A stretch of 64,000 nucleotides of DNA from Candidatus Electrothrix sp. GW3-4 (lineage in GTDB: Bacteria > Desulfobacterota > Desulfobulbia > Desulfobulbales > Desulfobulbaceae): the NCBI RefSeq assembly GCF_037902255.1, contig NZ_CP147990.1:674751-738750 (forward strand), read 5' to 3'. The translations under genes were made by a program, and so were the position numbers. Of this stretch, positions 532-25,454 are shown piece after piece. The notes beneath the pieces were generated by a model, which was given only the letters and a program-made list of their open reading frames with translations, had not been told where the DNA came from and did no database searches. How positions within the stretch are numbered: position 1 is the first letter of the stretch; each line of letters opens with the position of its first letter.

Positions 532-2522
532 TCGATCCAATCTGCAATTTGCACAGCTACTGTAAGGTATTTCTCTGCTTGAACAAGGTTAAGTATATCT
601 TTATAGGTAAGCCCAATATTAAAGTATGTCACTGCTTCTCCGACCCTATCACCAGACTGCCGCCGTAGAACCAAGGCTTGTTCTAAATATTCCATGGCCT
701 TGTTATGATTTTCTTGAGAATGGTATATCGCAGCGATGTTGTTCAAGGTTTCTCCTGCTCCAATCTTGTCACCAGCCGCCCATCTGATAGGAAGAGCCTC
801 CTCTAAATATACCAAGGCTATCTCCCATTCATCTTGGTGCATATAAACGTTGGCAATATTATTCAAGGTCGTGCCTTCCCCTTCTTGACTACGGATTTCC
901 CGCCATATTTTTAGACTCTGCTTGAAATGGTGCAAGGCCAAGTCGTATCCTTCTTGAAGGGTGTGACTTTTTGCTATATTATTCAATGTTGCACCTTCTC
1001 CCTGCTTGTCACCTAACTCACGATATATTGGCAGGCTTTTCTCATACCATTCTAAGGCTTTCTTATGATCACCGCATCTCCCACAAGTGTACCCAAGACT
1101 GTTCAAGCACCAAGCTTCATCTCTACGACCGCCTATGTGTCGGGCAGCAGTTAAAGCTATTTTTAAGGCGATTTGTCGATCCACCCAATGTCCCTGCCTG
1201 TCTAAATACCTTGAGATTAAGTAAACAAAATCTGACACTTCATCCCACAGCTCATTATTTAGACAAGCCTCAAGGAAGCGCAAGTGGTGTCCCCGCTCAT
1301 CATTGGTGCAAACATATCCCTTTCTTCCGGGTAGCATATTAGAAACACAGAACCATTTATAATGGTCAGATAGCAATAGCAAGTTCTTCCTGCTCAAAGC
1401 CAGCTCAGTTCGGGCATAGGTATGCACCAACGCATGGCTTATCTGCCAGCGTTCCTCTTGCTTCTCCAGCAAACCATAATTAACCAGCTCACCCAACGCC
1501 TTCCGTGCCCGGCGTTCATCATCCTCAAGCACAGCCGCCACCGGTTCACGGGCTATCGGCGCAAAGGCCAAGGTACCTGCTACGCCCAGCGCAAGGCGGG
1601 CATCCTCGCTCACCTGCGCCACGCTACGCCGCAGCAGCAAGGCGGCATTCTCCTCCTGATGCGTACCGTCACCCAGTTCCTTGAACGGCTCTTTTTCCAA
1701 CCACTTCAAGTAATCTGCCGCGCTCTCACCCGTGCTGCTGAGATACCGGCCCGCAATGCGCAAACCCACGGGCCAGCCATCCAATATCTTGCAGATGCCC
1801 TGCACGCTTGCATCATCCGTCGTTGTAGGGGCACAGCGTGCTGTGCCCTTACTATGTAGCCGGAAGACCTCAGCTGCGGGCTGCTCCTCCAGCGGGGTCA
1901 GGTCAAGCCGGAAGCCCTGGGCATCGTCCCGCTTCCGACTGGTGATCAGCACCCCGCAGGTACTGCGCAGATCAAGCACGGCCTTGAGGTCATCCGCCTC
2001 CTCGGTTCCGTCCAAGATGATCAATGCCTTCCTGCCTGAGAGCACCTGCCGCACTGTGCTGGCAAGGCCCGTCTTTGCCTCCACCTGAAAGGCTACGCAA
2101 ATGGCTTGCAGGGCCTGCTCTGTTTGGGGATGTCCATAGAAGCTATGAAAGACTATGCCGTCCGGGAAGCGGGCTTTCTCCAGCTTATCCACTGCCTGCG
2201 CCGCCAAGGCTGACTTTCCCATGCCGCCCGGCCCGCACACAGCAACGACCTTGCCGGGTTGGAGCTGCTCCAATAAATCGGCAAGCTCCTTATCTCTGCC
2301 GAGGAAGCAGGCATCAAGGGGCTGGAGTTGACGGGGAATAACGGGCGGGGGAGTAGGCGGCGGCTGGTGATAATGAATGCCACCCTCCACATGGGCATGA
2401 TTGCCCAGCACACCAATTTGTGCATTCTGGGCATTTATCTGCTTACCGATAGCCTCATTCCCTTGGCCGATATTCTGCTCACCATCGCCACTGTGGTTGA
2501 AGGTATTGTCAGTCGTTCCCAT
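456..2522 (-). CDS. STAND NTPase of NB-ARC type with C-terminal TPR repeats and a short Q/N/G-rich N-terminal extension.
   Basis: Walker A GPGGMGKS, Walker B ALIILDG, then VLITSR (TTR-like) and GWPVGL (GxP-like) motifs. At least 5 TPR-like repeats (TLNNIAxxY…) in the C-terminal half. Start taken at ATG 2522 (MGTTDNTF…), which has AAGGA 11 nt upstream. The longer ORF start at 2624 is possible. Confidence 0.8.
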   Translation of the reverse strand: MGTTDNTFNHSGDGEQNIGQGNEAIGKQINAQNAQIGVLGNHAHVEGGIHYHQPPPTPPPVIPRQLQPLDACFLGRDKELADLLEQLQPGKVVAVCGPGGMGKSALAAQAVDKLEKARFPDGIVFHSFYGHPQTEQALQAICVAFQVEAKTGLASTVRQVLSGRKALIILDGTEEADDLKAVLDLRSTCGVLITSRKRDDAQGFRLDLTPLEEQPAAEVFRLHSKGTARCAPTTTDDASVQGICKILDGWPVGLRIAGRYLSSTGESAADYLKWLEKEPFKELGDGTHQEENAALLLRRSVAQVSEDARLALGVAGTLAFAPIAREPVAAVLEDDERRARKALGELVNYGLLEKQEERWQISHALVHTYARTELALSRKNLLLLSDHYKWFCVSNMLPGRKGYVCTNDERGHHLRFLEACLNNELWDEVSDFVYLISRYLDRQGHWVDRQIALKIALTAARHIGGRRDEAWCLNSLGYTCGRCGDHKKALEWYEKSLPIYRELGDKQGEGATLNNIAKSHTLQEGYDLALHHFKQSLKIWREIRSQEGEGTTLNNIANVYMHQDEWEIALVYLEEALPIRWAAGDKIGAGETLNNIAAIYHSQENHNKAMEYLEQALVLRRQSGDRVGEAVTYFNIGLTYKDILNLVQAEKYLTVAVQIADWIDYPLLEKWREELAQVRAARQGTQET

Positions 2523-2693
2523 AGATGATCTTGTTTCCTTTGATTGAGACCCCAGGTATCTTTTTATTATCCTAATCGTATAGTCTGTTTTATAAAAAAG
2601 GGCGAATGAAAAGGTTTTTTGCATCCTTGATGTGAATCAGGTAGAGTGATAGCCAGAACGGTTTCTTTGTCAAATTAACTGGACGTAATGTCA

Positions 2694-2848
2694 CTAACAC
2701 CTATGCAGCTTAACTACCCTACGCAGCTTCCCATCACCGACCGCAAGGACGAGATCGTCCAGGCCATTCAGGATAATCAGGTTATCGTTATTGCAGGCGA
2801 TACCGGCTCCGGCAAGACAACCCAGCTCCCCAAGATGTGCCTGGAATA
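2694..2848 (+). pseudogene. Diverged partial duplicate of the hrpA 5' end (MSLTPMQLNYPTQLPITDRKDEIVQAIQDNQVIVIAGDTGSGKTTQLPKMCLE) that breaks off after helicase motif I.
   Basis: About 90% nucleotide identity to 3790-3958 at the start of the intact hrpA. Homology ends abruptly at 2838/2839. Confidence 0.65.
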
Positions 2849-2985
2849 TATAACCAGCCTGGGGTAACACCTTGGGCCGGGGATATCTATACAGCTTGTC
2901 GCACAGACATCTTGACAATATGCATACCGAAAGATATCCTGAAGTATATTAATTATATCCTCAAAACTCAAAACAATACGACCTC

Positions 2986-3294
2986 ATGTTTAATCTGCAA
3001 CTGCAAGTCGATCCAAAAACGGAACAACGCCTGAAAGCAATTCTAGCGCATATGCAAAATGAAGAAACCTTTGCGCAAAACATCATTGCCTACCAAATTG
3101 CTGAACTTCAAAAAAGTCTGCTCAATATCCGGCTTGATTTAAAAGGCTTTGAAAATAAATATAAGCAGTCGAGTGAAAAATTCTACCGCCTGTATGAACA
3201 AGGACAGACCGATGACAGCGAAGATACGATGTTGTGGGCAGGTCTTTACGAAATGCTGCGTAATAATGAAGAGAGGCTGCGGGAACTCGCATGA
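2986..3294 (+). CDS. Hypothetical 102-aa protein, first gene of a 2-gene overlapping cassette.
   Basis: ORF track. Stop/start overlap ATGA with the next gene. Predicted helical/charged. No recognisable motif. Confidence 0.5.
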   Translation: MFNLQLQVDPKTEQRLKAILAHMQNEETFAQNIIAYQIAELQKSLLNIRLDLKGFENKYKQSSEKFYRLYEQGQTDDSEDTMLWAGLYEMLRNNEERLRELA

Positions 3295-3665
3295 TTGACC
3301 TCTACTTCCGGAATGTTGAACATATTATCCAGGAGTTTCCAAATATCCGCAGCTCCGCTCTCAAGAAAAAACAGTATAACGCCAAACAGGGATATATCAG
3401 CGGCTCTGTCCATTTTGACTCTGGAAGCCGTCTTGAGTTTATGGAACTCAAAGACACAGACAGATCAGCAAAGATAAAATATCGCTATCAGTATATGGAT
3501 CAACAGAATACCTGTCTCTTCCGATACGATAATGCACCACATCATCCCGAGATAACAACTCATCCTCACCATAAGCATAATGGGGAGGAGATTATCGCAA
3601 GTTGTGAGCCGACGTTATTTGATATTTTACTTGAGATTGCCGAACAAGAACGTGAAGACGAGTAG
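3291..3665 (+). CDS. Hypothetical 124-aa protein with a His-rich HHPEITTHPHHKH segment, second gene of the cassette.
   Basis: ORF track. Translational coupling to the upstream ORF. Family not recognised. Confidence 0.5.
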   Translation: MIDLYFRNVEHIIQEFPNIRSSALKKKQYNAKQGYISGSVHFDSGSRLEFMELKDTDRSAKIKYRYQYMDQQNTCLFRYDNAPHHPEITTHPHHKHNGEEIIASCEPTLFDILLEIAEQEREDE

Positions 3666-3757
3666 AGAAATCAGGGGGAAATCGCTCTTCTCAAAAGCCT
3701 CTCCTCTCACCCTCAGGTAAGTCCCCACCTTTGCATCCTCCCTGGTAATCGGGTAAA

Positions 3758-6700
3758 GTGGCAACCAGAAACGTTTTCCAAGAAAAACAATTGTGCGTAA
3801 CGCCACTAACACCTATGCAGCTCAACTACCCTACACAGCTCCCCATCACCGACCGCAAGGACGAGATCGTCCAGGCCGTTCGGGAACATCAGGTCATCGT
3901 TATTGCAGGCGATACCGGGTCCGGCAAGACAACCCAGCTCCCCAAGATGTGCCTGGAGGCAGGCCGGGCAGGGGAGGGGACCATGATCGGCTGTACCCAG
4001 CCCCGCCGTATTGCCGCCCTGTCAGTCACCGAGCGGGTGCAGGAGGAGCTGGGGCAGGTCCGGACGGTGGGGTCCAAGATTCGCTTTCAGGATCGCACCG
4101 GCCCGAAAACCCGGATCAAGTTCATGACCGACGGGATTCTTCTGGCCGAGACCCGGGGCGACCGCGATCTGCGGGCCTACGACACCCTGATCATTGACGA
4201 GGCCCATGAGCGCAGCCTGAACATCGACTTTCTGCTCGGCTATCTCCATCAATTGCTGGCCCGCCGTCAGGACCTCAAGCTGATCATTGCCTCGGCCACC
4301 ATTGATACCGAGAAATTCAGTAAGCATTTTCACGATGCCCCGATTATCCAGGTGGAAGGACGCACCTATCCGGTCACGGTGGAATACTGCCCCCCGGACA
4401 ACGATGACGATGAAAGCAATCAGGATATCGACCGGCTGGTTGCTGACCAGATTGTCAGGCTTATGGCGCGGCGCGGTGGGGATATCCTGGCCTTTCTCCC
4501 CACGGAACGGGACATCCTGGATACGGTGGCCTTGCTGCGTAAGGAGCTGGCTGACCGGGCCCTGATTCTGCCCCTGTTCGGACGGCTCCAGGGCGGGGAG
4601 CAGCGGCGTATTTTTCGTTCTGCGCAGCGGCGCAAGATCATTGTGGCCACCAATGTGGCAGAGACCTCCATCACTGTGCCGGGCATAGAATGCGTGGTGG
4701 ACACTGGCTTGGCGCGGATCGCCCATTATAATGTGCGGGCCGGGACCACCCATCTGCCCGTGACCAGGATTGCCAGGGCCAGTTGCGACCAGCGAGCCGG
4801 GCGTTGTGGTCGGGTAGGGCCAGGGCGTTGTATCCGCCTCTACAGCGAGGAGGATTATCTTGCCCGCGATGAGTTCACCCTGCCGGAGATCCAGCGTTCC
4901 AATCTGGCTGAGGTTATTCTCCAGATGCTCAGTCTTCGCCTGCCTGAGCCGCGCAATTTTCCCTTTATCGATCCGCCAGCACCCAGAGCGGTCAATGACG
5001 GCTTTCGTATTCTTCGGGAACTGGGGGCCCTTGACAGCGAGCACCAACTCACCGAGCGGGGCCGGATCATGGCTCGCCTGCCCCTGGACCCGCGCATCTC
5101 CCGGATGATTATCGAAGGCGCGGAACTGGGCGTGCTCCGGGAAACCACGATCATTGCCGCAGCCCTGGCTATTCAGGACCCCCGTGTCCAGCCGCCGGAT
5201 AAGCTGGAAAAGGCCCGGCAGGCCCACCGGGCCTTCAATTATCCCGGCTCGGATGTCATGACCCTGGTGAATATGTGGGATACCTGTCGAGGTGAAGCCC
5301 TGCCTTCGCCCGGTTCGTCTGATAAAGGGCAGAGTCGCCAGGATGATAAAGAGCAGACACGGGAAGCTGCCCCTACACCATCAGCCGGTCAGTTGCGCCG
5401 TTTTTGCGAGGCCAATTTCTGCTCCTGGCAGCGGATGCGGGAATGGTTTGATATTCATGAGCAGATCCTCCGTATCCTCAAGCAGCATAAGGAATTTGTC
5501 TCGGCCTTGGATCGTATGGCCGAATCGTCGTCTTTGCAGAATAATGTAGGGACACGGCATGCCGTGTCCCTACCGGAATCGCAGGATCGTAGGGGCGAAC
5601 CTTGTGATCGCCCGTTACGTTCCCCATCAAACCGTAGGGACGAACCCCTGTGTTCGCCCGGTTTATCTGATAAAGGGCAGACACGGGGATCTGCCCCTAC
5701 AGCACCAACCCTGGTTCATCAGGCCCTGACCGCAGGATTCCTGCGCAACATTGCCCTGCGCAAGGAAAAGAATACCTATCAGATCTCCGGCAACCGGGAG
5801 GCCATGCTCTTTCCCGGTTCCGGCCTGTATAATAAGGGGGGACAGTGGATCGTGGCAGCGGATTTTGTCCATACCTCGCAGCTCTTTGCCCGCATGGCCG
5901 CCACGATTGAGGTGGACTGGCTGGAACGCCTCGGCGGTGATCTCTGCAAACGCTCCTACTCGGACCCGCATTGGCAGAAAAAGTCCGGGCAGGTCATTGC
6001 CCTGGAAAAGGTCTCCCTGTTCGGTTTGGTGATTGCTGCGGATCGGCGGGTGAACTACGGGCGCATCAGCAAGAAAACAGCAGCGGAAGCCAAGGAGATT
6101 TTTATCCGGGAGGCTTTGATCCCCGGTGAACTCAAGGGCAAATATCCCTTTCTTGAGCATAATCTGGCCCTGGCTCGGCAACAGGAAGAGCTGGAGGAAC
6201 GCCTGCGTAGGCGCGGCATCATGACTGATGAGCAGGTTCTGTACGAGTTCTATGATCAGCGGCTGGAACTGGTGTATGACCGCTTCACCCTGAACCGCTT
6301 TTTGAGCAGGAAACGCAAGCAGGCCAAGCCCGGTGAAGAAGCGGACGGCTTTCTCAGGATGACAGAGGAAGATCTTTGCCAAAGCCAACCGGAAAGCGAT
6401 GAGCTGTATCGCTTTCCGAAAACCCTGACCACACCTCAAGGCGAGTTGCGTCTTTCGTATACCTTCCACCCTGGTCAGGATGACGACGGCGTGACTGTGG
6501 ATATCCCGGTCTCCTGCTGTCCGGCCCTGTCACCGAATCTCTTTGAGTGGCTGGTGCCCGGTCTGCTGGAGGACAAGGTGGCGGCCTTGCTCAAGGGGCT
6601 GCCCAAACGCCTGCGCAAGCTCTTTGTCCCTTTGCCGGACACGGCGGCCCTGCTCATGGACGGTATGGATCTCTACCAAGGTTCCCTGTACCCGGCCCTG

Positions 6701-7873
6701 GAGCGTTTTCTTCTCCGTCATTTTCAGGTCAGGGTGACACGGGCGGACTGGCAATTGGAGAATCTCCCCCTCCACCTGCGTATGCGTTTCCGTCTCTGCG
6801 ACGAGCAGGGAAAGGCTCTGTATTACACGCGTGATTTCCATAAGCTTGCTCTACATTGCGGTTCAATGCGGCAGACAATGCAGGGAGGGCAGATGCGGAA
6901 GGTCGAAGACCTGCCAGAAAGAAAGAATATCCAGGTATGGGATTTTGCCGTGGCTCCGCGCCCTCTGCCTGCACGGGACGAGCATAACCGGGTCACGGGC
7001 CTCTACTATCCGGCTTTGTTCCTGGGATTGAGCAAGGGGCAGGAGCAGCAGCTTTGCCTGAGGTATATTGCCGACCCTGAGCAGGCAGTTCGAGAGAACA
7101 GAAAGGGGCTTCGTTTCCTCTATGGGCAGTATTTCAGCAAGGAGTTTAAGGCGGTTGCCAAGGAATGCAAGGCAGCGGTGGCCGGGCATACCGCCTCCTG
7201 GCTCTCTCTTGGGATGAAGGCCGGGGCCGGAGAAACCAGGGACCTGTTGCTCAACTGTATTGTGGACAGCCTGTTTCAGATTAGCGGGGACCTACCGAAC
7301 AAGACTGGCTTTGAGCTGATCCTTGACGATCTCCGGGAGCAGGGAGTGACCCGACTGGCGAGGGAGCAGCTCAATCAGGTGCTGGATCTGCTGGCGGAAC
7401 GCCGCAAGACTCAGGTCGCCCTGACGCAAAGTAAACAACGGGCCGGGAAAAGTCGGAGTGCGGATCAGGCCCGCTTTGCCGAATATGAGGACTTACTTGA
7501 GAGACTGGTACCTGCGGATTTCCTTGATCGATTTTCTCCAGAAGAGGCCGGTGACCGAAAGCGGTACCTTCAGGCCCTGGCCAAGCGGGTAGAACGGGCC
7601 GAGCATAGTCCGCATAAGGATGCGGATAAGGTCAAGAGGGTTCAGCCCTTTGCTGAGCATCTCCGTCAGCTGGATCGGAAAGAGGCGGAGCAGAAAGCAG
7701 GCGGGAGCATTTCGGCTCCCTGCCGGGAGGCTGTGGTCCTGTATCGCCGCATGGTGGAGGAGTTCCGTATATCTGTCTTTGCCCCGGAAATCGGTACAGC
7801 CATGCCAGTCTCAGAAAAACGGCTGAAGCAGCAATGGAAGCTGGTGGAGGAGAGCTGCAGGAGGGTGGAATAA
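3758..7873 (+). CDS. hrpA: ATP-dependent RNA helicase HrpA (DEAH-box), carrying a low-complexity insertion.
   Basis: GDTGSGKTTQLP motif I, DEAHERS motif II, SAT, and the HA2/OB region. An alternative start at ATG 3815 (MQLNYP…) is possible. Residues ~515-650 are encoded by repeat-derived DNA (see the repeat feature). Confidence 0.9.
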   Translation: MATRNVFQEKQLCVTPLTPMQLNYPTQLPITDRKDEIVQAVREHQVIVIAGDTGSGKTTQLPKMCLEAGRAGEGTMIGCTQPRRIAALSVTERVQEELGQVRTVGSKIRFQDRTGPKTRIKFMTDGILLAETRGDRDLRAYDTLIIDEAHERSLNIDFLLGYLHQLLARRQDLKLIIASATIDTEKFSKHFHDAPIIQVEGRTYPVTVEYCPPDNDDDESNQDIDRLVADQIVRLMARRGGDILAFLPTERDILDTVALLRKELADRALILPLFGRLQGGEQRRIFRSAQRRKIIVATNVAETSITVPGIECVVDTGLARIAHYNVRAGTTHLPVTRIARASCDQRAGRCGRVGPGRCIRLYSEEDYLARDEFTLPEIQRSNLAEVILQMLSLRLPEPRNFPFIDPPAPRAVNDGFRILRELGALDSEHQLTERGRIMARLPLDPRISRMIIEGAELGVLRETTIIAAALAIQDPRVQPPDKLEKARQAHRAFNYPGSDVMTLVNMWDTCRGEALPSPGSSDKGQSRQDDKEQTREAAPTPSAGQLRRFCEANFCSWQRMREWFDIHEQILRILKQHKEFVSALDRMAESSSLQNNVGTRHAVSLPESQDRRGEPCDRPLRSPSNRRDEPLCSPGLSDKGQTRGSAPTAPTLVHQALTAGFLRNIALRKEKNTYQISGNREAMLFPGSGLYNKGGQWIVAADFVHTSQLFARMAATIEVDWLERLGGDLCKRSYSDPHWQKKSGQVIALEKVSLFGLVIAADRRVNYGRISKKTAAEAKEIFIREALIPGELKGKYPFLEHNLALARQQEELEERLRRRGIMTDEQVLYEFYDQRLELVYDRFTLNRFLSRKRKQAKPGEEADGFLRMTEEDLCQSQPESDELYRFPKTLTTPQGELRLSYTFHPGQDDDGVTVDIPVSCCPALSPNLFEWLVPGLLEDKVAALLKGLPKRLRKLFVPLPDTAALLMDGMDLYQGSLYPALERFLLRHFQVRVTRADWQLENLPLHLRMRFRLCDEQGKALYYTRDFHKLALHCGSMRQTMQGGQMRKVEDLPERKNIQVWDFAVAPRPLPARDEHNRVTGLYYPALFLGLSKGQEQQLCLRYIADPEQAVRENRKGLRFLYGQYFSKEFKAVAKECKAAVAGHTASWLSLGMKAGAGETRDLLLNCIVDSLFQISGDLPNKTGFELILDDLREQGVTRLAREQLNQVLDLLAERRKTQVALTQSKQRAGKSRSADQARFAEYEDLLERLVPADFLDRFSPEEAGDRKRYLQALAKRVERAEHSPHKDADKVKRVQPFAEHLRQLDRKEAEQKAGGSISAPCREAVVLYRRMVEEFRISVFAPEIGTAMPVSEKRLKQQWKLVEESCRRVE
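5547..5661. repeat. Three tandem REP-like palindromic units inside hrpA, translated in frame: 5547-5573 GTAGGGACACGGCATGCCGTGTCCCTAC (perfect 28-bp palindrome), 5589-5618, and 5634-5660.
   Basis: Palindromes read directly in the sequence. A related unit TGTAGGGGCGAATCCCTGTGTTCGTCC sits intergenically at 43925-43951. Confidence 0.65.
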
Positions 7874-7974
7874 TGGAAAGGAACGACCTGGTAAAACCAG
7901 ATAAAATCAGGAGGATCTATTAAACAGGTCGTTTGATAATGCGGAACCTTTGTACCAAAATAATATTGCTGATT

Positions 7975-8862
7975 TTACAAAAAACCTATTTTTAGCCTTT
8001 CTTTTGGCCATGCCCACGCTGTCAGATTGCTCATAAATGCTCCTGCAAAACACCCGCAATTTGAACAATCGGCATTATTCCCAAAGCATCGTCTCGTGTT
8101 CCATGAAGCATCAAAATGACGTGCCTCATCGCCCCAGTAACACCAGCCTCGATGGTCGGTTTTTTCATACCAGCTGATCATTGAATCATTCAGCAAAAAG
8201 TCGTTCGGATAGCGCGATTTCACTCTTCGAAGCTCCTGAAGAATCTCTCTACGGAGACTCTTTGCAGGAACTATGGGGTCGGTATCTTTGTCATCCCCGG
8301 TTTTAGACATGTAGATATTGCAGACAACGCCTGAAAAATTGTGTTCCTGAGAAGCCCGTACCAGCTGTTCAAGTTCAGTGTAATTTTGGCCGTTGACTGT
8401 CATATTGATGATGATCCGCTTATCACCGGAATAGTTTTTCAGAATTTTAGAAAAAACGCCTTGGCCTCGTATTTTGTCATTGGTTTTCTCGGTGCCCTCA
8501 ACAGATACATACAGAGGATGTTTGAATTCCAGAGGAATTTTTATAGTTCCATTTGTGATAATATACACAAAGGGGAAAATTTTATCCGCCAACATCAACA
8601 CATCTGGTCTTAACGCTGGTTCACCACCTACTAACAAAACGAGGCGAACTCCAGACTGATAGAGATCATGCAACCGTTCTTCCCATTGTGTTATAGGGGT
8701 AACCTCTTTTGAAAAATTTTTTTTCCCATAAAAATGATAACAATGCTCACACCTGAGATTACAGGCATCAGTGACATCAAACTCAGCCATAAACTTGGTT
8801 CCAAATACTTTCCGTTTCAGCTCAAAGAAGCCAAGTTGCGTTAACTTTATGAATTTATCCAC
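7975..8862 (-). CDS. Radical SAM enzyme with a C-terminal Cys-rich auxiliary-cluster (SPASM/twitch-like) region.
   Basis: CNLRCEHCY CxxxCxxC motif near the N-terminus. C-terminal CYWGDE…CFGNNADCSNCGCF. No precursor-peptide ORF found nearby. Confidence 0.8.
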   Translation of the reverse strand: MDKFIKLTQLGFFELKRKVFGTKFMAEFDVTDACNLRCEHCYHFYGKKNFSKEVTPITQWEERLHDLYQSGVRLVLLVGGEPALRPDVLMLADKIFPFVYIITNGTIKIPLEFKHPLYVSVEGTEKTNDKIRGQGVFSKILKNYSGDKRIIINMTVNGQNYTELEQLVRASQEHNFSGVVCNIYMSKTGDDKDTDPIVPAKSLRREILQELRRVKSRYPNDFLLNDSMISWYEKTDHRGWCYWGDEARHFDASWNTRRCFGNNADCSNCGCFAGAFMSNLTAWAWPKERLKIGFL

Positions 8863-9084
8863 TTTTATTTGGTTGTTTTATTGGTTACATTGATGACCAA
8901 GCTTCATGAGCATACCTGTTACTTTGCGTGTGCAGTGCGCGTTTGGTGCAAGCCGCTGCCCCTGTTGATAAAGGGGTGGCGAGTTCATCTCAATACCCGC
9001 ACCTTGTCAAAGGTATAGCTGACTTTTCGACTGATTTCAATTGAATTCATGTAACCTGTATTAACGTTTGACGGAGCAATTTCC

Positions 9085-9190
9085 GGTCTCGCTCTTTGCC
9101 CCGGAAATTGGCACGGCCATGCCTGTCTCTGAGAAACGGCTGAAGGAGCAATGGCAGCAGGTGGAGGAGAGTTGTCGGCGGGTGGAGTGA
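9085..9190 (+). pseudogene. Diverged duplicate of the hrpA 3' end, encoding …LFAPEIGTAMPVSEKRLKEQWQQVEESCRRVE*.
   Basis: About 85% nucleotide identity to 7770-7873. The differences are mostly synonymous. Confidence 0.65.
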
Positions 9191-9304: not shown

Positions 9305-10455
9305 ATGATCAAAAAACTCGTTGTTTCCAATTTCCGCAGTCTTGGTCCTGACATTCATTTTGAACCGGGCAAGCTTTCTTTTTTATAGGACCGAACGGAT
9401 CAGGAAAGTCAAACATTCTTGATGTGCTCTCTTTTGTGAGGGATTCGGTTATGCAGGGCCTACCTGCCGCTATCACCCATAGACGTGGTATCGACAGTGT
9501 ACGGAGACGCAGTCATGGTCGTCCTTTTGATGTACACATAGAATTTCAGCTTCTTATTGATCAGCAGCATGTAACGTATGAATTTATTATTACCGGTGAT
9601 CGCCTCGAAGAGTATAGGGTAAAGACAGAAAAGGCGATTATGTACGGACCGAAGGGCGAGGAAAAGGTCTCATTTATCAGAAATGGTCATGAGTGGGATG
9701 GGCCGGAAGGAGTGGCGCCCTTTATGGATGAGCAATCCTTGGCCTTGACGGCACTGGGAGGAACAAAACAGTTCAAACCCTTGGTTGATTTTCTTTCAGG
9801 TCTAACCGTTTATTCTATTTTTCCGGATACCCTTCGGATTCCTCAGCGTTTTGATTCAAGCCATCCACTTAAAGAGCATGGAGAGAACTGGGTATCTATT
9901 TTACGGGAATTGGTGAAAGAAAAGTACGCCAAAGATGATATTGTTACAGGATTGAGGAAGCTCACCGGAGATATTGAGGATGTCCGAGTGGCGAGCGCAG
10001 CAGGATATCTGATAGCTGAGTTTAAGCAGCAGGTCAAAGGACAAAAGGCGAAACGTTGGTTTGACGCAGCTCAGCAGTCGGATGGAACGCTTAGGGTTGC
10101 AGGATTATTGACGGCCTTGGTGCAAACACCGGCTCTTCCGGTCATCGGTGTGGAGGAGCCAGAACTTACCGTTCATCCCGGAGCTCTGCCCATGCTCTAT
10201 GATTATCTGCGGCAGGCCAGCGAGATGTCGCAGGTCTTTGTTACTACGCATAGTCCGATAATCCTTGATGTTGTTGATGTTGAAAACGATGTTGTTTTTG
10301 TCGTCAATCGGGTGGATGGTAAAACAGATGTAAAAAGGATGGCGGATACCCAGCTGGAACCCGTTCGCAAGAGCTTGTTGCGATTAGGGGATCTCTTTAT
10401 GTCAGGTGACTTGCAACTTTCTCTTTTTGACGATGATACCCCCTGGAGGGAATGA
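9305..10455 (+). CDS. AAA family ATPase (OLD/ABC-like, AAA_21-type), interrupted by a -1 frameshift in a T6 homopolymer at 9379-9384.
   Basis: The frame from ATG 9305 gives MIKKLVVSNFRSLGPDIHFEPGKLSFL*. The adjacent frame continues …FFIGPNGSGKSNILD (Walker A) to 10455. One extra T would restore a single ~383-aa ORF. Confidence 0.75.
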
Positions 10456-11072
10456 TTGTGGCTGGCAAAAAGGGGTATCTGCTTGTGGAAGGACACGGGG
10501 AAGTGGAGGCTGCCCAGAATTTTATTACCCGCCTGAGTCACGATATCGGGATATACGACATTCCCTGGAGTAAACCCTTGCGTTGGACCAATCTGCATCA
10601 ATGGCAAGGGCATAAATCGGGAGGGGTAATGGCAGGTGCTGAATTTATTCGCACAAAGCCAGATGCTGGGGCATTGTTGATTCTTCGAGATGAGGATAAT
10701 CAATGTCCCAAGGAGCTTGCGCCGCAGATCGCAAGGCAATTGCGAATGCTTAAACTTCCCTTTCCAACGGCTTATGTGTTGTTGCATCCAGAATATGAAG
10801 TGCTCTTTCTTCCTTGTCTCGAGCAGATGGGGTTTCCGTCTTGGGACAGGGATTCGTGGGAGGCTCGGCGAGGAATTAAAGAATGGCTTTCCGGGAAGTT
10901 GCCCAAAGGACGTTCGTACAAGCCCACTGTGCAGCAGTTTGCTTTAACCCGGAAACTTGACTTCTCGATGCTGCGAGTAGCAGACGTGCCCTGTTTCGGT
11001 AGCTTGGAAAGAGGACTTCGGTTTCTATCAGATCACTCAGGCCAAACCGGTAAAGTATACCCGGTAGAGTGA
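10452..11072 (+). CDS. DUF4276-like protein (TOPRIM-like: LVEGHGE … LRDEDNQ), translationally coupled to the ATPase.
   Basis: ATGA overlap with the ATPase. N-terminal LVEGxxE motif and a downstream DxD-like acidic motif, typical of DUF4276/OLD-TOPRIM proteins. Identified from memory of the family. Confidence 0.6.
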   Translation: MIVAGKKGYLLVEGHGEVEAAQNFITRLSHDIGIYDIPWSKPLRWTNLHQWQGHKSGGVMAGAEFIRTKPDAGALLILRDEDNQCPKELAPQIARQLRMLKLPFPTAYVLLHPEYEVLFLPCLEQMGFPSWDRDSWEARRGIKEWLSGKLPKGRSYKPTVQQFALTRKLDFSMLRVADVPCFGSLERGLRFLSDHSGQTGKVYPVE

Positions 11073-24302: not shown

Positions 24303-25454
24303 ATGGAGGGACGTAATGATATCCAAGACTGGCTGGCATTAATTGCCCTCCCTGGCCTTGGATGCGTCCTTGCCCGGCGCCTGCTTGCAGCCTTCGGAAC
24401 ACCTGGCAAGGTGCTGAAGGCTGGCAAGGCGGTTGCCGAGGTTCCTGGTATTGGCAGAAATCTGGTTGAACTTTTTTCTAGCCCATCCCGGCTGGACAAG
24501 GCCCGCTTCTGGGCTGAACAGGAATGCGTTCGCGTTCATGCACAAGGCATTCAGCTGCTCTGCTGTGATGACCCCCTTTATCCCTCTCTTCTCCTTAATA
24601 TCCACGATTACCCTCTTCTTCTCTATTGCCTAGGGAATATTGATTGTCTTTGTCTTCCGGCGGTTGCGGTGGTTGGGTCCCGTACGCCAACAAATTACGG
24701 GAAAGGCGTGAGTGTTACCCTTGCTCAGCAACTTGTCAGGAAGGGGCTTGTTGTGGTCAGTGGGCTTGCCAAGGGAATTGATGGGCAGGCGCATATCGGT
24801 GCGCTTGAGGCGGGGGGAAAAACAATAGCCGTCCTCGGATGCGGTCTGGATGTTGTCTATCCAGGCGCGCACGGTCCTCTGTATAAACAGATCGGCGAAC
24901 AGGGATTGCTTATGAGTGAGTATCCCCTTGGTAGCCCACCAGAGGGATTCCGCTTTCCTGCCCGTAACCGCATTGTCAGTGGCCTTTCCTTGGGTGTTGT
25001 TATTGTCGAGGCTGCTGTCCGCTCCGGGGCATTGATCACAGCTAGGCTTGCCCTGGAGCAGAATAGGGAGGTCTTTGCTGTGCCAGGCAGAATTGACTCG
25101 CCAAAGAGCTCAGGGCCGCACGGTTTACTGCGACAGGGCGCTACCCTGGTCTGCTCTGTCGAAGATATTCTTGCCGAATTACCACCAGTGCTTCCTTCAC
25201 AAGAAAGTGATCAGGTTCCTGCTCATAACGCCACTCCTCCCGTTGTCCCAAAAGATAAAACCATCGCCCTCCCTGATGATCTTTCTGAAGAAGAAAGGGC
25301 CTTGATGTCTGCCATGAAGGGGGGCTCGATAGATATTGAGCAGTTGTCTGAACTCTCTGCTTTGCCTCTGAATACTCTTCATGTCCTTCTTCTTGGCCTT
25401 GAGCTCCGCGGTTTGATTCGGCAGCTTCCGGGTCAACAGTACGTCCGATCTTAA
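24303..25454 (+). CDS. dprA: DNA-processing protein DprA (Smf).
   Basis: Rossmann-like GSRTPTNYG…GLAKGIDGQAH…GCGLDVVYP. C-terminal wHTH-like tail. Confidence 0.85.
   Translation: MEGRNDIQDWLALIALPGLGCVLARRLLAAFGTPGKVLKAGKAVAEVPGIGRNLVELFSSPSRLDKARFWAEQECVRVHAQGIQLLCCDDPLYPSLLLNIHDYPLLLYCLGNIDCLCLPAVAVVGSRTPTNYGKGVSVTLAQQLVRKGLVVVSGLAKGIDGQAHIGALEAGGKTIAVLGCGLDVVYPGAHGPLYKQIGEQGLLMSEYPLGSPPEGFRFPARNRIVSGLSLGVVIVEAAVRSGALITARLALEQNREVFAVPGRIDSPKSSGPHGLLRQGATLVCSVEDILAELPPVLPSQESDQVPAHNATPPVVPKDKTIALPDDLSEEERALMSAMKGGSIDIEQLSELSALPLNTLHVLLLGLELRGLIRQLPGQQYVRS

Follow-up and report, generated by a model that had tools for sequence, protein, structure and literature searches.

A predicted TumE-TumA toxin-antitoxin cassette between duplicated 5' ends of hrpA in the cable bacterium Candidatus Electrothrix sp. 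GW3-4

The DNA analyzed is a 64,000-nucleotide stretch of the genome of Candidatus Electrothrix sp. GW3-4 (assembly GCF_037902255.1, contig NZ_CP147990.1, positions 674,751 to 738,750 of the forward strand), hereafter the window, and the subject is a pair of small genes, called tumA and tumE, located at the start of hrpA. The 5' end of hrpA is present twice, the sequence 2618-2846 matching 3730-3958 at a start-to-start distance of 1112 bp. Identity is 91% across the 174-nt coding-proximal part of the repeat, and 74% across the 47-nt upstream part. The left hrpA copy (ATG at 2703) breaks off after codon 48, the right copy runs on from the ATG at 3815 to the stop at 7873 as an intact HrpA protein (TIGR01967, 1172.8 bits, cut-off 722.75), and the two small genes are for this reason placed exactly between the repeats. 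A first-pass annotation, made from the letters alone, had reported here two small open reading frames (ORFs) of 102 and 124 amino acids (aa) overlapping by ATGA, and filling the segment between the duplicated hrpA ends. Both statements hold. The ORFs span 2986..3294 and 3291..3665 on the plus strand, each starting with ATG, the ATGA overlap falls at 3291-3294, and the peptide strings quoted at the time (...EDTMLWAGLYEMLRNNEERLRELA; YDNAPHHPEITTHPHHKHNGEE) are found in the two translations.

Read from left to right, all features of the insertion site lie on the plus strand. The upstream region of the left repeat copy (-85..-1; 2618..2702) is native, extending leftward into the intergenic DNA next to a STAND NTPase gene; to the left of -85 the left copy, not the right one, aligns with the sequences of two relatives in which the site is empty (L095 and L096; contigs and loci used for comparison are given L numbers). 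The hrpA 5' fragment made up by codons 1-48 (2703..2846) ends inside the stretch coding for the Walker-A motif, is 92-93% identical to 3815-3958, and is a displaced pseudogene remnant, called as a 59-aa ORF at 2688..2867. It is followed by a junction segment (2847..2883) with a G+C-rich hairpin (AGCCTGGGGTAACACCTTGGGCC; minimum free energy of -18.3 kcal/mol for 2840-2890), and by the 5' non-coding part of the cassette (2884..2985), homology with the cassette found at an unrelated locus (L006) beginning at 2884. Next come tumA (2986..3294), predicted to encode an acidic, all-helical antitoxin of the long form, tumE (3291..3665), predicted to encode the toxin, and a 64-bp spacer (3666..3729), which, from the comparison with relatives, moves with the cassette in the hrpA context. 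The second copy of the hrpA upstream region (up', -85..-1; 3730..3814) is 98.8-100% identical to the upstream regions of the relative L001 and of the empty-site L095. The upstream region of the left copy is just 68-69% identical to the same sequences, yet continuous with the native intergenic DNA. Of the intact gene of the DEAH-box RNA helicase HrpA (3815..7873), the first ~17 nt alone are part of a recently exchanged block. G+C content is 0.41-0.42 in tumA and tumE, 0.59 in hrpA, and 0.50 across the whole window. A search of Rfam with the 2400-4000 region gave no match.

The 124-aa protein belongs to Pfam family PF20126 (TumE, formerly DUF6516), which it matches with 87 bits (E 8.5e-25), well over the gathering score of 23.4, residues 41-119 aligning with profile positions 2-79 of 81. 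The NCBIfam model NF045777, toxin TumE, is matched at near full length (residues 2-115, 72.4 bits, E 3.1e-20). No Pfam family was matched by the 102-aa protein, labeled "hypothetical protein" in the public record of the source genome; its match is with the NCBIfam model NF045776, antitoxin TumA (34.4 bits, E 1.8e-8). Both proteins also match, as adjacent genes, the two components of the PADLOC candidate system PDC-M44 (PDC-M44A, 1.7e-9, the 102-aa protein; PDC-M44B, 1.5e-21, the 124-aa protein). Judged by these profiles, the 102-aa protein is related to the TumA antitoxin, and the 124-aa protein is a predicted TumE toxin. The proposal of the first-pass annotation, a toxin-antitoxin or small defense module with the 124-aa protein as toxin, is thus borne out by the matches, and no housekeeping family was matched by either protein. 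The description of the pair as unrecognized was mistaken, TumE-TumA having been named and validated in 2023 (PMC10584680), and being represented in Pfam, NCBIfam and PADLOC. A TumA profile search delineated one family with 726 representatives at 50% identity, comprising a long (~102 aa) and a short (~70-80 aa) form, the short form missing the first ~30 residues. Cluster names gave no link between the long TumA form and the validated Thioploca ingrica pair.

An AlphaFold2 model of TumE, built on a 45-sequence alignment, has a predicted local distance difference test (pLDDT) score of 95.8 and features a helix (residues 2-15), seven strands, and a second helix (residues 109-123). This predicted alpha+beta fold matches the one published for DUF6516, a seven-stranded antiparallel sheet against which two helices pack and which has no relative in the PDB (PMC10584680). 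Sequence searches of the PDB, carried out with single proteins and with profiles, returned nothing significant for TumA or TumE. Invariant TumE residues include Y29, Q33, G34, K61, K63, Y64, R65, Y66, R78, D80, E106, and the histidines H84, H93, H94 and H96, in which the His cluster singled out by the first-pass annotation is readily recognized. This cluster is the most conserved feature of TumE and, because its residues are invariant across the family, the likeliest candidate for the active site. TumA is predicted to fold into four helices (pLDDT 90.7, the N-terminal nonapeptide at lower confidence) and has an isoelectric point (pI) of 5.0, in line with the earlier description of the first protein as helical and acidic.

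The TumE-TumA system was defined by Durairaj et al. 2023 (Nature 622:646; PMC10584680) as a type II toxin-antitoxin with a translation-blocking toxin. DUF6516 genes follow a small partner gene. Six pairs from gammaproteobacteria proved toxic in Escherichia coli, where their toxicity was also neutralized, and the TumE of Allochromatium tepidum lowered the incorporation of 35S-methionine; a putative RNase activity of TumE has been proposed (PMC10584680). The window pair and the validated pairs share toxin domain, predicted fold, antitoxin-first order and arrangement as an overlapping bicistron, and the window antitoxin has the central and C-terminal helices of TumA. The host is in contrast a cable bacterium (Desulfobulbales) rather than a gammaproteobacterium, scores fall under the NCBIfam equivalog cut-offs, and the window TumA, a 102-aa long form, features an additional N-terminal strand-and-helix segment.

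Expression of the pair would start within the cassette. A promoter-like site (2912-2940, TTGACA-17-TATCCT) resides in cassette-borne DNA, and this sigma-70-like sequence probably drives tumA. An imperfect palindrome (2924-2947) overlapping the -10 region is a possible operator, and TumA, if it behaves as the antitoxins of validated pairs, probably autoregulates the promoter. No clear Shine-Dalgarno sequence precedes tumA, and the ATGA overlap probably couples translation of tumE to that of tumA. Judging from its validated homologues, free TumE would block protein synthesis and arrest growth; by analogy with the same pairs, TumA is expected to bind and neutralize it. No terminator-like site was found between tumE and hrpA (3666-3729), and read-through into hrpA is therefore possible.

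More than 100 homologues of the same length were found for each protein. Both genes are under strong purifying selection, the ratio of nonsynonymous to synonymous substitution rates (dN/dS) relative to the L006 copy being 0.06 for tumA and 0.09 for tumE, at a dS of 0.41-0.45. Loci were fetched by look-ups from either partner protein, 21 in all; in 19, set in unrelated neighborhoods, tumA is followed by tumE with a 4-nt overlap. The pair was found in contigs of Electrothrix and other Desulfobulbales (L004, L006, L088-L090, L092), and also in a complete genome of the cyanobacterium Pseudanabaena (L099), and in metagenome-assembled genomes of Anaerolineales (L100) and Methylobacter (L104). The co-occurrence to be expected of a functional pair, which the first-pass annotation had suggested as a check, is therefore observed across phyla. 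Most copies do not lie beside hrpA, isocitrate/isopropylmalate dehydrogenase or ABC transporter genes being examples of other neighbors. A tblastn search with TumE gave no match among sequenced plasmids and phages, and nothing relevant was found in the literature on toxin-antitoxin systems in cable bacteria.

Different states of the hrpA site in relatives were recovered by a DNA-pattern scan of metagenome contigs. L095 and L096 have an empty 5' site, in which the STAND NTPase gene, an intergenic region and a single hrpA follow each other. L094 carries a higB remnant and an intact higA, which separate the upstream region of hrpA from its ATG. In the window, one hrpA 5' fragment, TumA-TumE and intact hrpA are lined up. 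The array is longest in L001, a 107-kb contig (JGI contig Ga0450804_3530075), where three tandem hrpA 5' copies are found at 4787-6833, the order being copy A (to about +111), HigB-HigA, copy B (+1 to +136), TumA-TumE, and intact hrpA. Copy B has an in-frame TAG and resembles the window copies; the two outer copies, A and C, match each other at 97% identity. Among the states compared, each inserted cassette is preceded by its own hrpA 5' fragment, L094 excepted. One locus thus occurs in related strains in empty, single-cassette, other-cassette, tandem and toxin-deleted forms. When contigs were scanned with the HrpA N-terminus, all matches came from distant Desulfobulbales or from other taxa (identity of 71% or less); none was an Electrothrix empty site, and none featured a duplicated hrpA 5' end or TumAE. 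The hrpA-fragment ORFs in L107, a frameshift-ridden long-read contig, and L108, ending in an inverted chimera, are uninformative. In a more distant lineage (L109 1734-1913, L110 657-836), an hrpA 5' fragment ends at +136, ...CCCAAGATGT, and is followed by unrelated DNA with two CCACTATAGTGG palindromes, both contigs ending ~200 bp later.

The 2884-3831 interval is 98% identical in the window and L001, whereas the hrpA genes share just 70-87% nucleotide identity. Besides the cassette, the interval takes in the 64-bp spacer and the second upstream copy, and extends 17 nt into hrpA. Synonymous divergence between window and L001 is 0.086 in tumA and 0.059 in tumE; for hrpA it amounts to 0.71 over the first 500 codons and 1.25 over the last 600, the dS of the cassette being about ten times below that of the gene next to it. 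It follows that the lineages exchanged the block long after they had diverged. The cassette alone (2884-3667) is found at unrelated loci, with identity of 90% in L006 and 77% in L004.

The two fetched loci departing from the rule keep tumA without tumE. In L003, which has the same hrpA context, tumE is cut to 9 codons (L003 400-440). In L091, from Ca. Electrothrix aarhusensis, a 147-aa TumA fusion (5001-5510) is found, with no TumE, and a dehydrogenase gene directly after it; in L092 the same dehydrogenase gene instead adjoins an intact pair. Loss of tumE with retention of tumA is the decay expected if the second gene is toxic. A partnership of the two proteins is supported, at the level of gene arrangement, by synteny, gene overlap and this pattern of toxin loss. 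The higB remnant beside an intact higA in L094 (1340-1440) is a third variant, along with L003 and L091, in which the toxin gene is deleted or truncated and the antitoxin gene kept.

The presence of HigBA cassettes at the same hrpA site (L001, L094) invites comparison with the HigBA/RelBE type II toxin-antitoxins, likewise small, mobile two-gene operons with a translation-stopping toxin, scattered across variable chromosomal sites. TumE has in contrast no sequence or fold relationship to RelE/HigB, and the HigBA order is toxin-first, the TumAE order antitoxin-first.

From the comparisons above, the cassette is mobile and foreign to the locus, the ancestral order being STAND NTPase gene, intergenic region, hrpA. 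The simplest reading of the junctions is a recombination anchored on hrpA (homology-facilitated illegitimate recombination). Incoming DNA would have carried the cassette together with the hrpA promoter region and the hrpA start, and hrpA would so have been kept intact. One side may have been joined by homologous recombination within hrpA and the other, illegitimately, inside the 5' end of the resident hrpA, an end that was displaced and is left as the 48-codon fragment. The hrpA-derived flanks could now serve as homology arms, allowing ordinary homologous exchange of the cassette between Electrothrix lineages. A microhomology (CCTGGA/CCTGAA) with the left flank of the L006 cassette is found at 2840-2845, the final bases of the hrpA fragment. 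We assign a probability of about 85% to the overall interpretation, by which the pair is a type II toxin-antitoxin operon of the TumE-TumA family that recombined into the start of hrpA through hrpA-anchored recombination.

The junction between hrpA fragment and cassette (2847-2883) also features a hairpin motif, AGCCYRGGRTAACACYYTSGG, present in three more copies before the same cassette in L006 (5628-5890). As a repeat element or cassette end, the motif (GGGTAACAC) was discarded, being found once in the window, and missing in more distant cassettes. A shorter hairpin core has one additional copy in the window, on the reverse strand at 24712.

Several points weigh against the interpretation just given. 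TumE stays under the NF045777 equivalog cut-off (72.4 vs 90 bits), homologous to the validated toxins and outside the equivalog group. TumA falls further below the NF045776 cut-off (34.4 vs 100 bits), just residues 44-89 aligning with profile positions 14-59 of 76, and is a long form with ~30 additional N-terminal residues relative to the 76-position profile. As both scores are below the equivalog cut-offs, the pair lies outside the validated subgroup, and toxicity and neutralization are properties taken over from homologues. At 5.7, the pI of TumE is acidic, and atypical for RNA-binding toxins. Concerning the route of entry, the near-identity of L001 copies A and C is better explained by gene conversion, or by a circular intermediate that integrated, than by a simple one-sided linear event, and the junction base +136 is common to L001 copy B and L109/L110, which carry different cargo, a coincidence hinting at a preferred junction or site preference at hrpA +136. 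With scores outside the equivalog cut-offs and a TumA of the long form, the window pair represents a sub-branch beside the validated pairs, and not their orthologue. The module itself adds little, extending the TumE-TumA family to cable bacteria with a long-TumA sub-branch, the antitoxin side of which is not covered by Pfam. It is already known as a family, and the modest point of interest is the hrpA-anchored capture of the cassette.

The pattern of insertion resembles the orphan arrays found at type VI secretion system (T6SS) effector-immunity, Rhs, and contact-dependent inhibition (CDI) loci, attributed to homology-facilitated illegitimate recombination (Kirchberger et al. 2017, PMC5361080), and for this reason adds an example to a process already described rather than revealing a new one. 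In both settings a conserved gene provides the homologous anchor, the end of the resident gene is displaced and kept as a fragment, and tandem arrays are built by successive events. Here, in contrast, a housekeeping gene, that of an RNA helicase, provides the anchor with both of its ends, and the cargo consists of genes of the toxin-antitoxin or defense type, not of variants of the toxin domain of the anchor gene. The locus may accordingly serve as a compact natural example of toxin-antitoxin gain by recombination anchored on a conserved gene, spread between diverged lineages, and toxin-first decay.

Use of the 3' end is indicated by a second pair of repeats (7738..9186, insert included). The terminal 132 nt of hrpA (7738-7869) recur at 9055-9186 with 78% identity, flanking a 1.2-kb insert of low G+C (0.42) with a radical-SAM gene on the minus strand (7975-8862), whose 295-aa product has matches to the generic radical-SAM core alone. 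As the same repeat signature is found at its 3' end, hrpA appears to act as an anchor on both sides. L001 has no radical-SAM insert, and its hrpA 3' end is nearer to the displaced fragment (82.5%) than to the functional 3' end of the window. Insertion of the whole toxin-antitoxin, hrpA and radical-SAM block into an older hrpA in a single event was considered and rejected, since L001 shares the 5' junction and not the 3' one.

Upstream, on the minus strand, the native neighbor of hrpA is the gene of a 722-aa STAND NTPase (456-2624) made up by an NB-ARC/nSTAND1 domain and TPR_12 repeats, conserved in the empty-site L095 and L096. Downstream lies a HEC-01 candidate defense pair, HEC-01A (9424-10455, 7e-77) and HEC-01B (10452-11072, 1.9e-23). 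The island context named by the first-pass annotation is in line with these surroundings, STAND NTPase gene on one side, radical-SAM insert and HEC-01 pair on the other, and hrpA lies in a small, variable, defense-like region. The HEC-01A ORF misses the first ~47 profile positions, and a short ORF in another frame, which begins with an ATG at 9306 (MIKKLVVSNFRSLG...), resembles its N-terminus, the split (window 9306-11072) suggesting a frameshift or a sequencing error.

A broader, tentative proposal is that the hrpA ends of cable bacteria are a landing pad, capturing, stacking, and passing small toxin-antitoxin or defense cassettes between species, the displaced fragments serving as portable homology arms, maybe with a preferred junction at +136.

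Somewhat less probable is that the pair is mainly an anti-phage abortive-infection module, rather than just a selfish addiction module; infection would release TumE, and translation would be shut down by the freed toxin, a view overlapping with the operon interpretation and not excluding it. The matches of both proteins to the two PDC-M44 components, the position between the STAND NTPase gene and the HEC-01A/B pair, and the variable content of the locus in closely related strains are in line with such a role. PDC-M44 is however only a candidate system, no mention of which was found in the literature searched; elsewhere the pair is mostly found alone between housekeeping genes, and no copy was detected by tblastn on sequenced phages or plasmids.

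Integrative elements of the SXT/R391 type enter the 5' end of prfC, and supply the gene with a new promoter and start. The hrpA 5' repeats could by the same token be the attL and attR sites of a decayed site-specific element with a replacement 5' end, from which the integrase was lost and the toxin-antitoxin pair remains, a remnant mobilizable in cis and forming tandem copies by accretion. Such an origin is doubtful. Direct repeats do bound the insert, the target gene stays intact, as in SXT/R391, thanks to an insert-borne promoter and start, the tandem array of L001 includes a second toxin-antitoxin cassette, and the breakpoint base at ...CCCAAGATGT recurs with different cargo in L001 copy B and L109/L110. 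Yet no recombinase gene resides between any repeat pair, inserts being of 0.7-1.2 kb (the wider window was not screened for integrases). Breakpoints vary from about +111 to +113 (L001 copy A) through +136 (L001 copy B) to +144 (window), the hrpA 3' end bears the same signature with unrelated cargo, viral contigs gave no match to the hrpA 5' core sequence, and the recently shared block stops at hrpA +17, not at a repeat boundary. Differently from SXT/R391, the ~1 kb inserts have no integrase, breakpoints are not uniform, and the diverged repeats are long, reaching ~230 bp. Tandem arrangements are a trait shared with such elements. The recombinase gene and uniform att junctions that mark a site-specific element or an integron cassette are not seen, the insert consisting of the two ORFs alone.

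HrpA is in E. coli a helicase rescuing collided ribosomes (PMC11419001), and a functional coupling of translation-targeting toxins with HrpA is conceivable, because the toxins of the HigBA and TumAE families act on translation and both cassettes of the 5' site are located directly upstream of hrpA in the same orientation, with no terminator between tumE and hrpA; it is rated improbable, most copies of the pair not being beside hrpA. The notion that the ORFs are chance or decayed frames in an AT-rich spacer born of a local duplication of the hrpA start, suggested by the low G+C (0.41-0.42) and by the unclear Shine-Dalgarno sequence of tumA, is refuted by hundreds of full-length homologues of conserved length, dN/dS values of 0.06-0.09, confident structure predictions, and a Pfam score far above threshold.

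Further variation was observed inside hrpA. A palindrome-containing repeat with core GATAAAGGGCAGACACGGGGATCTGCCCCTACA, of which no further copy is found in the 64-kb window, is present twice in frame (5294-5386 and 5642-5710). The two copies add to the protein a low-complexity segment (..SDKGQTR..APT..) that is partly absent from the L001 orthologue.

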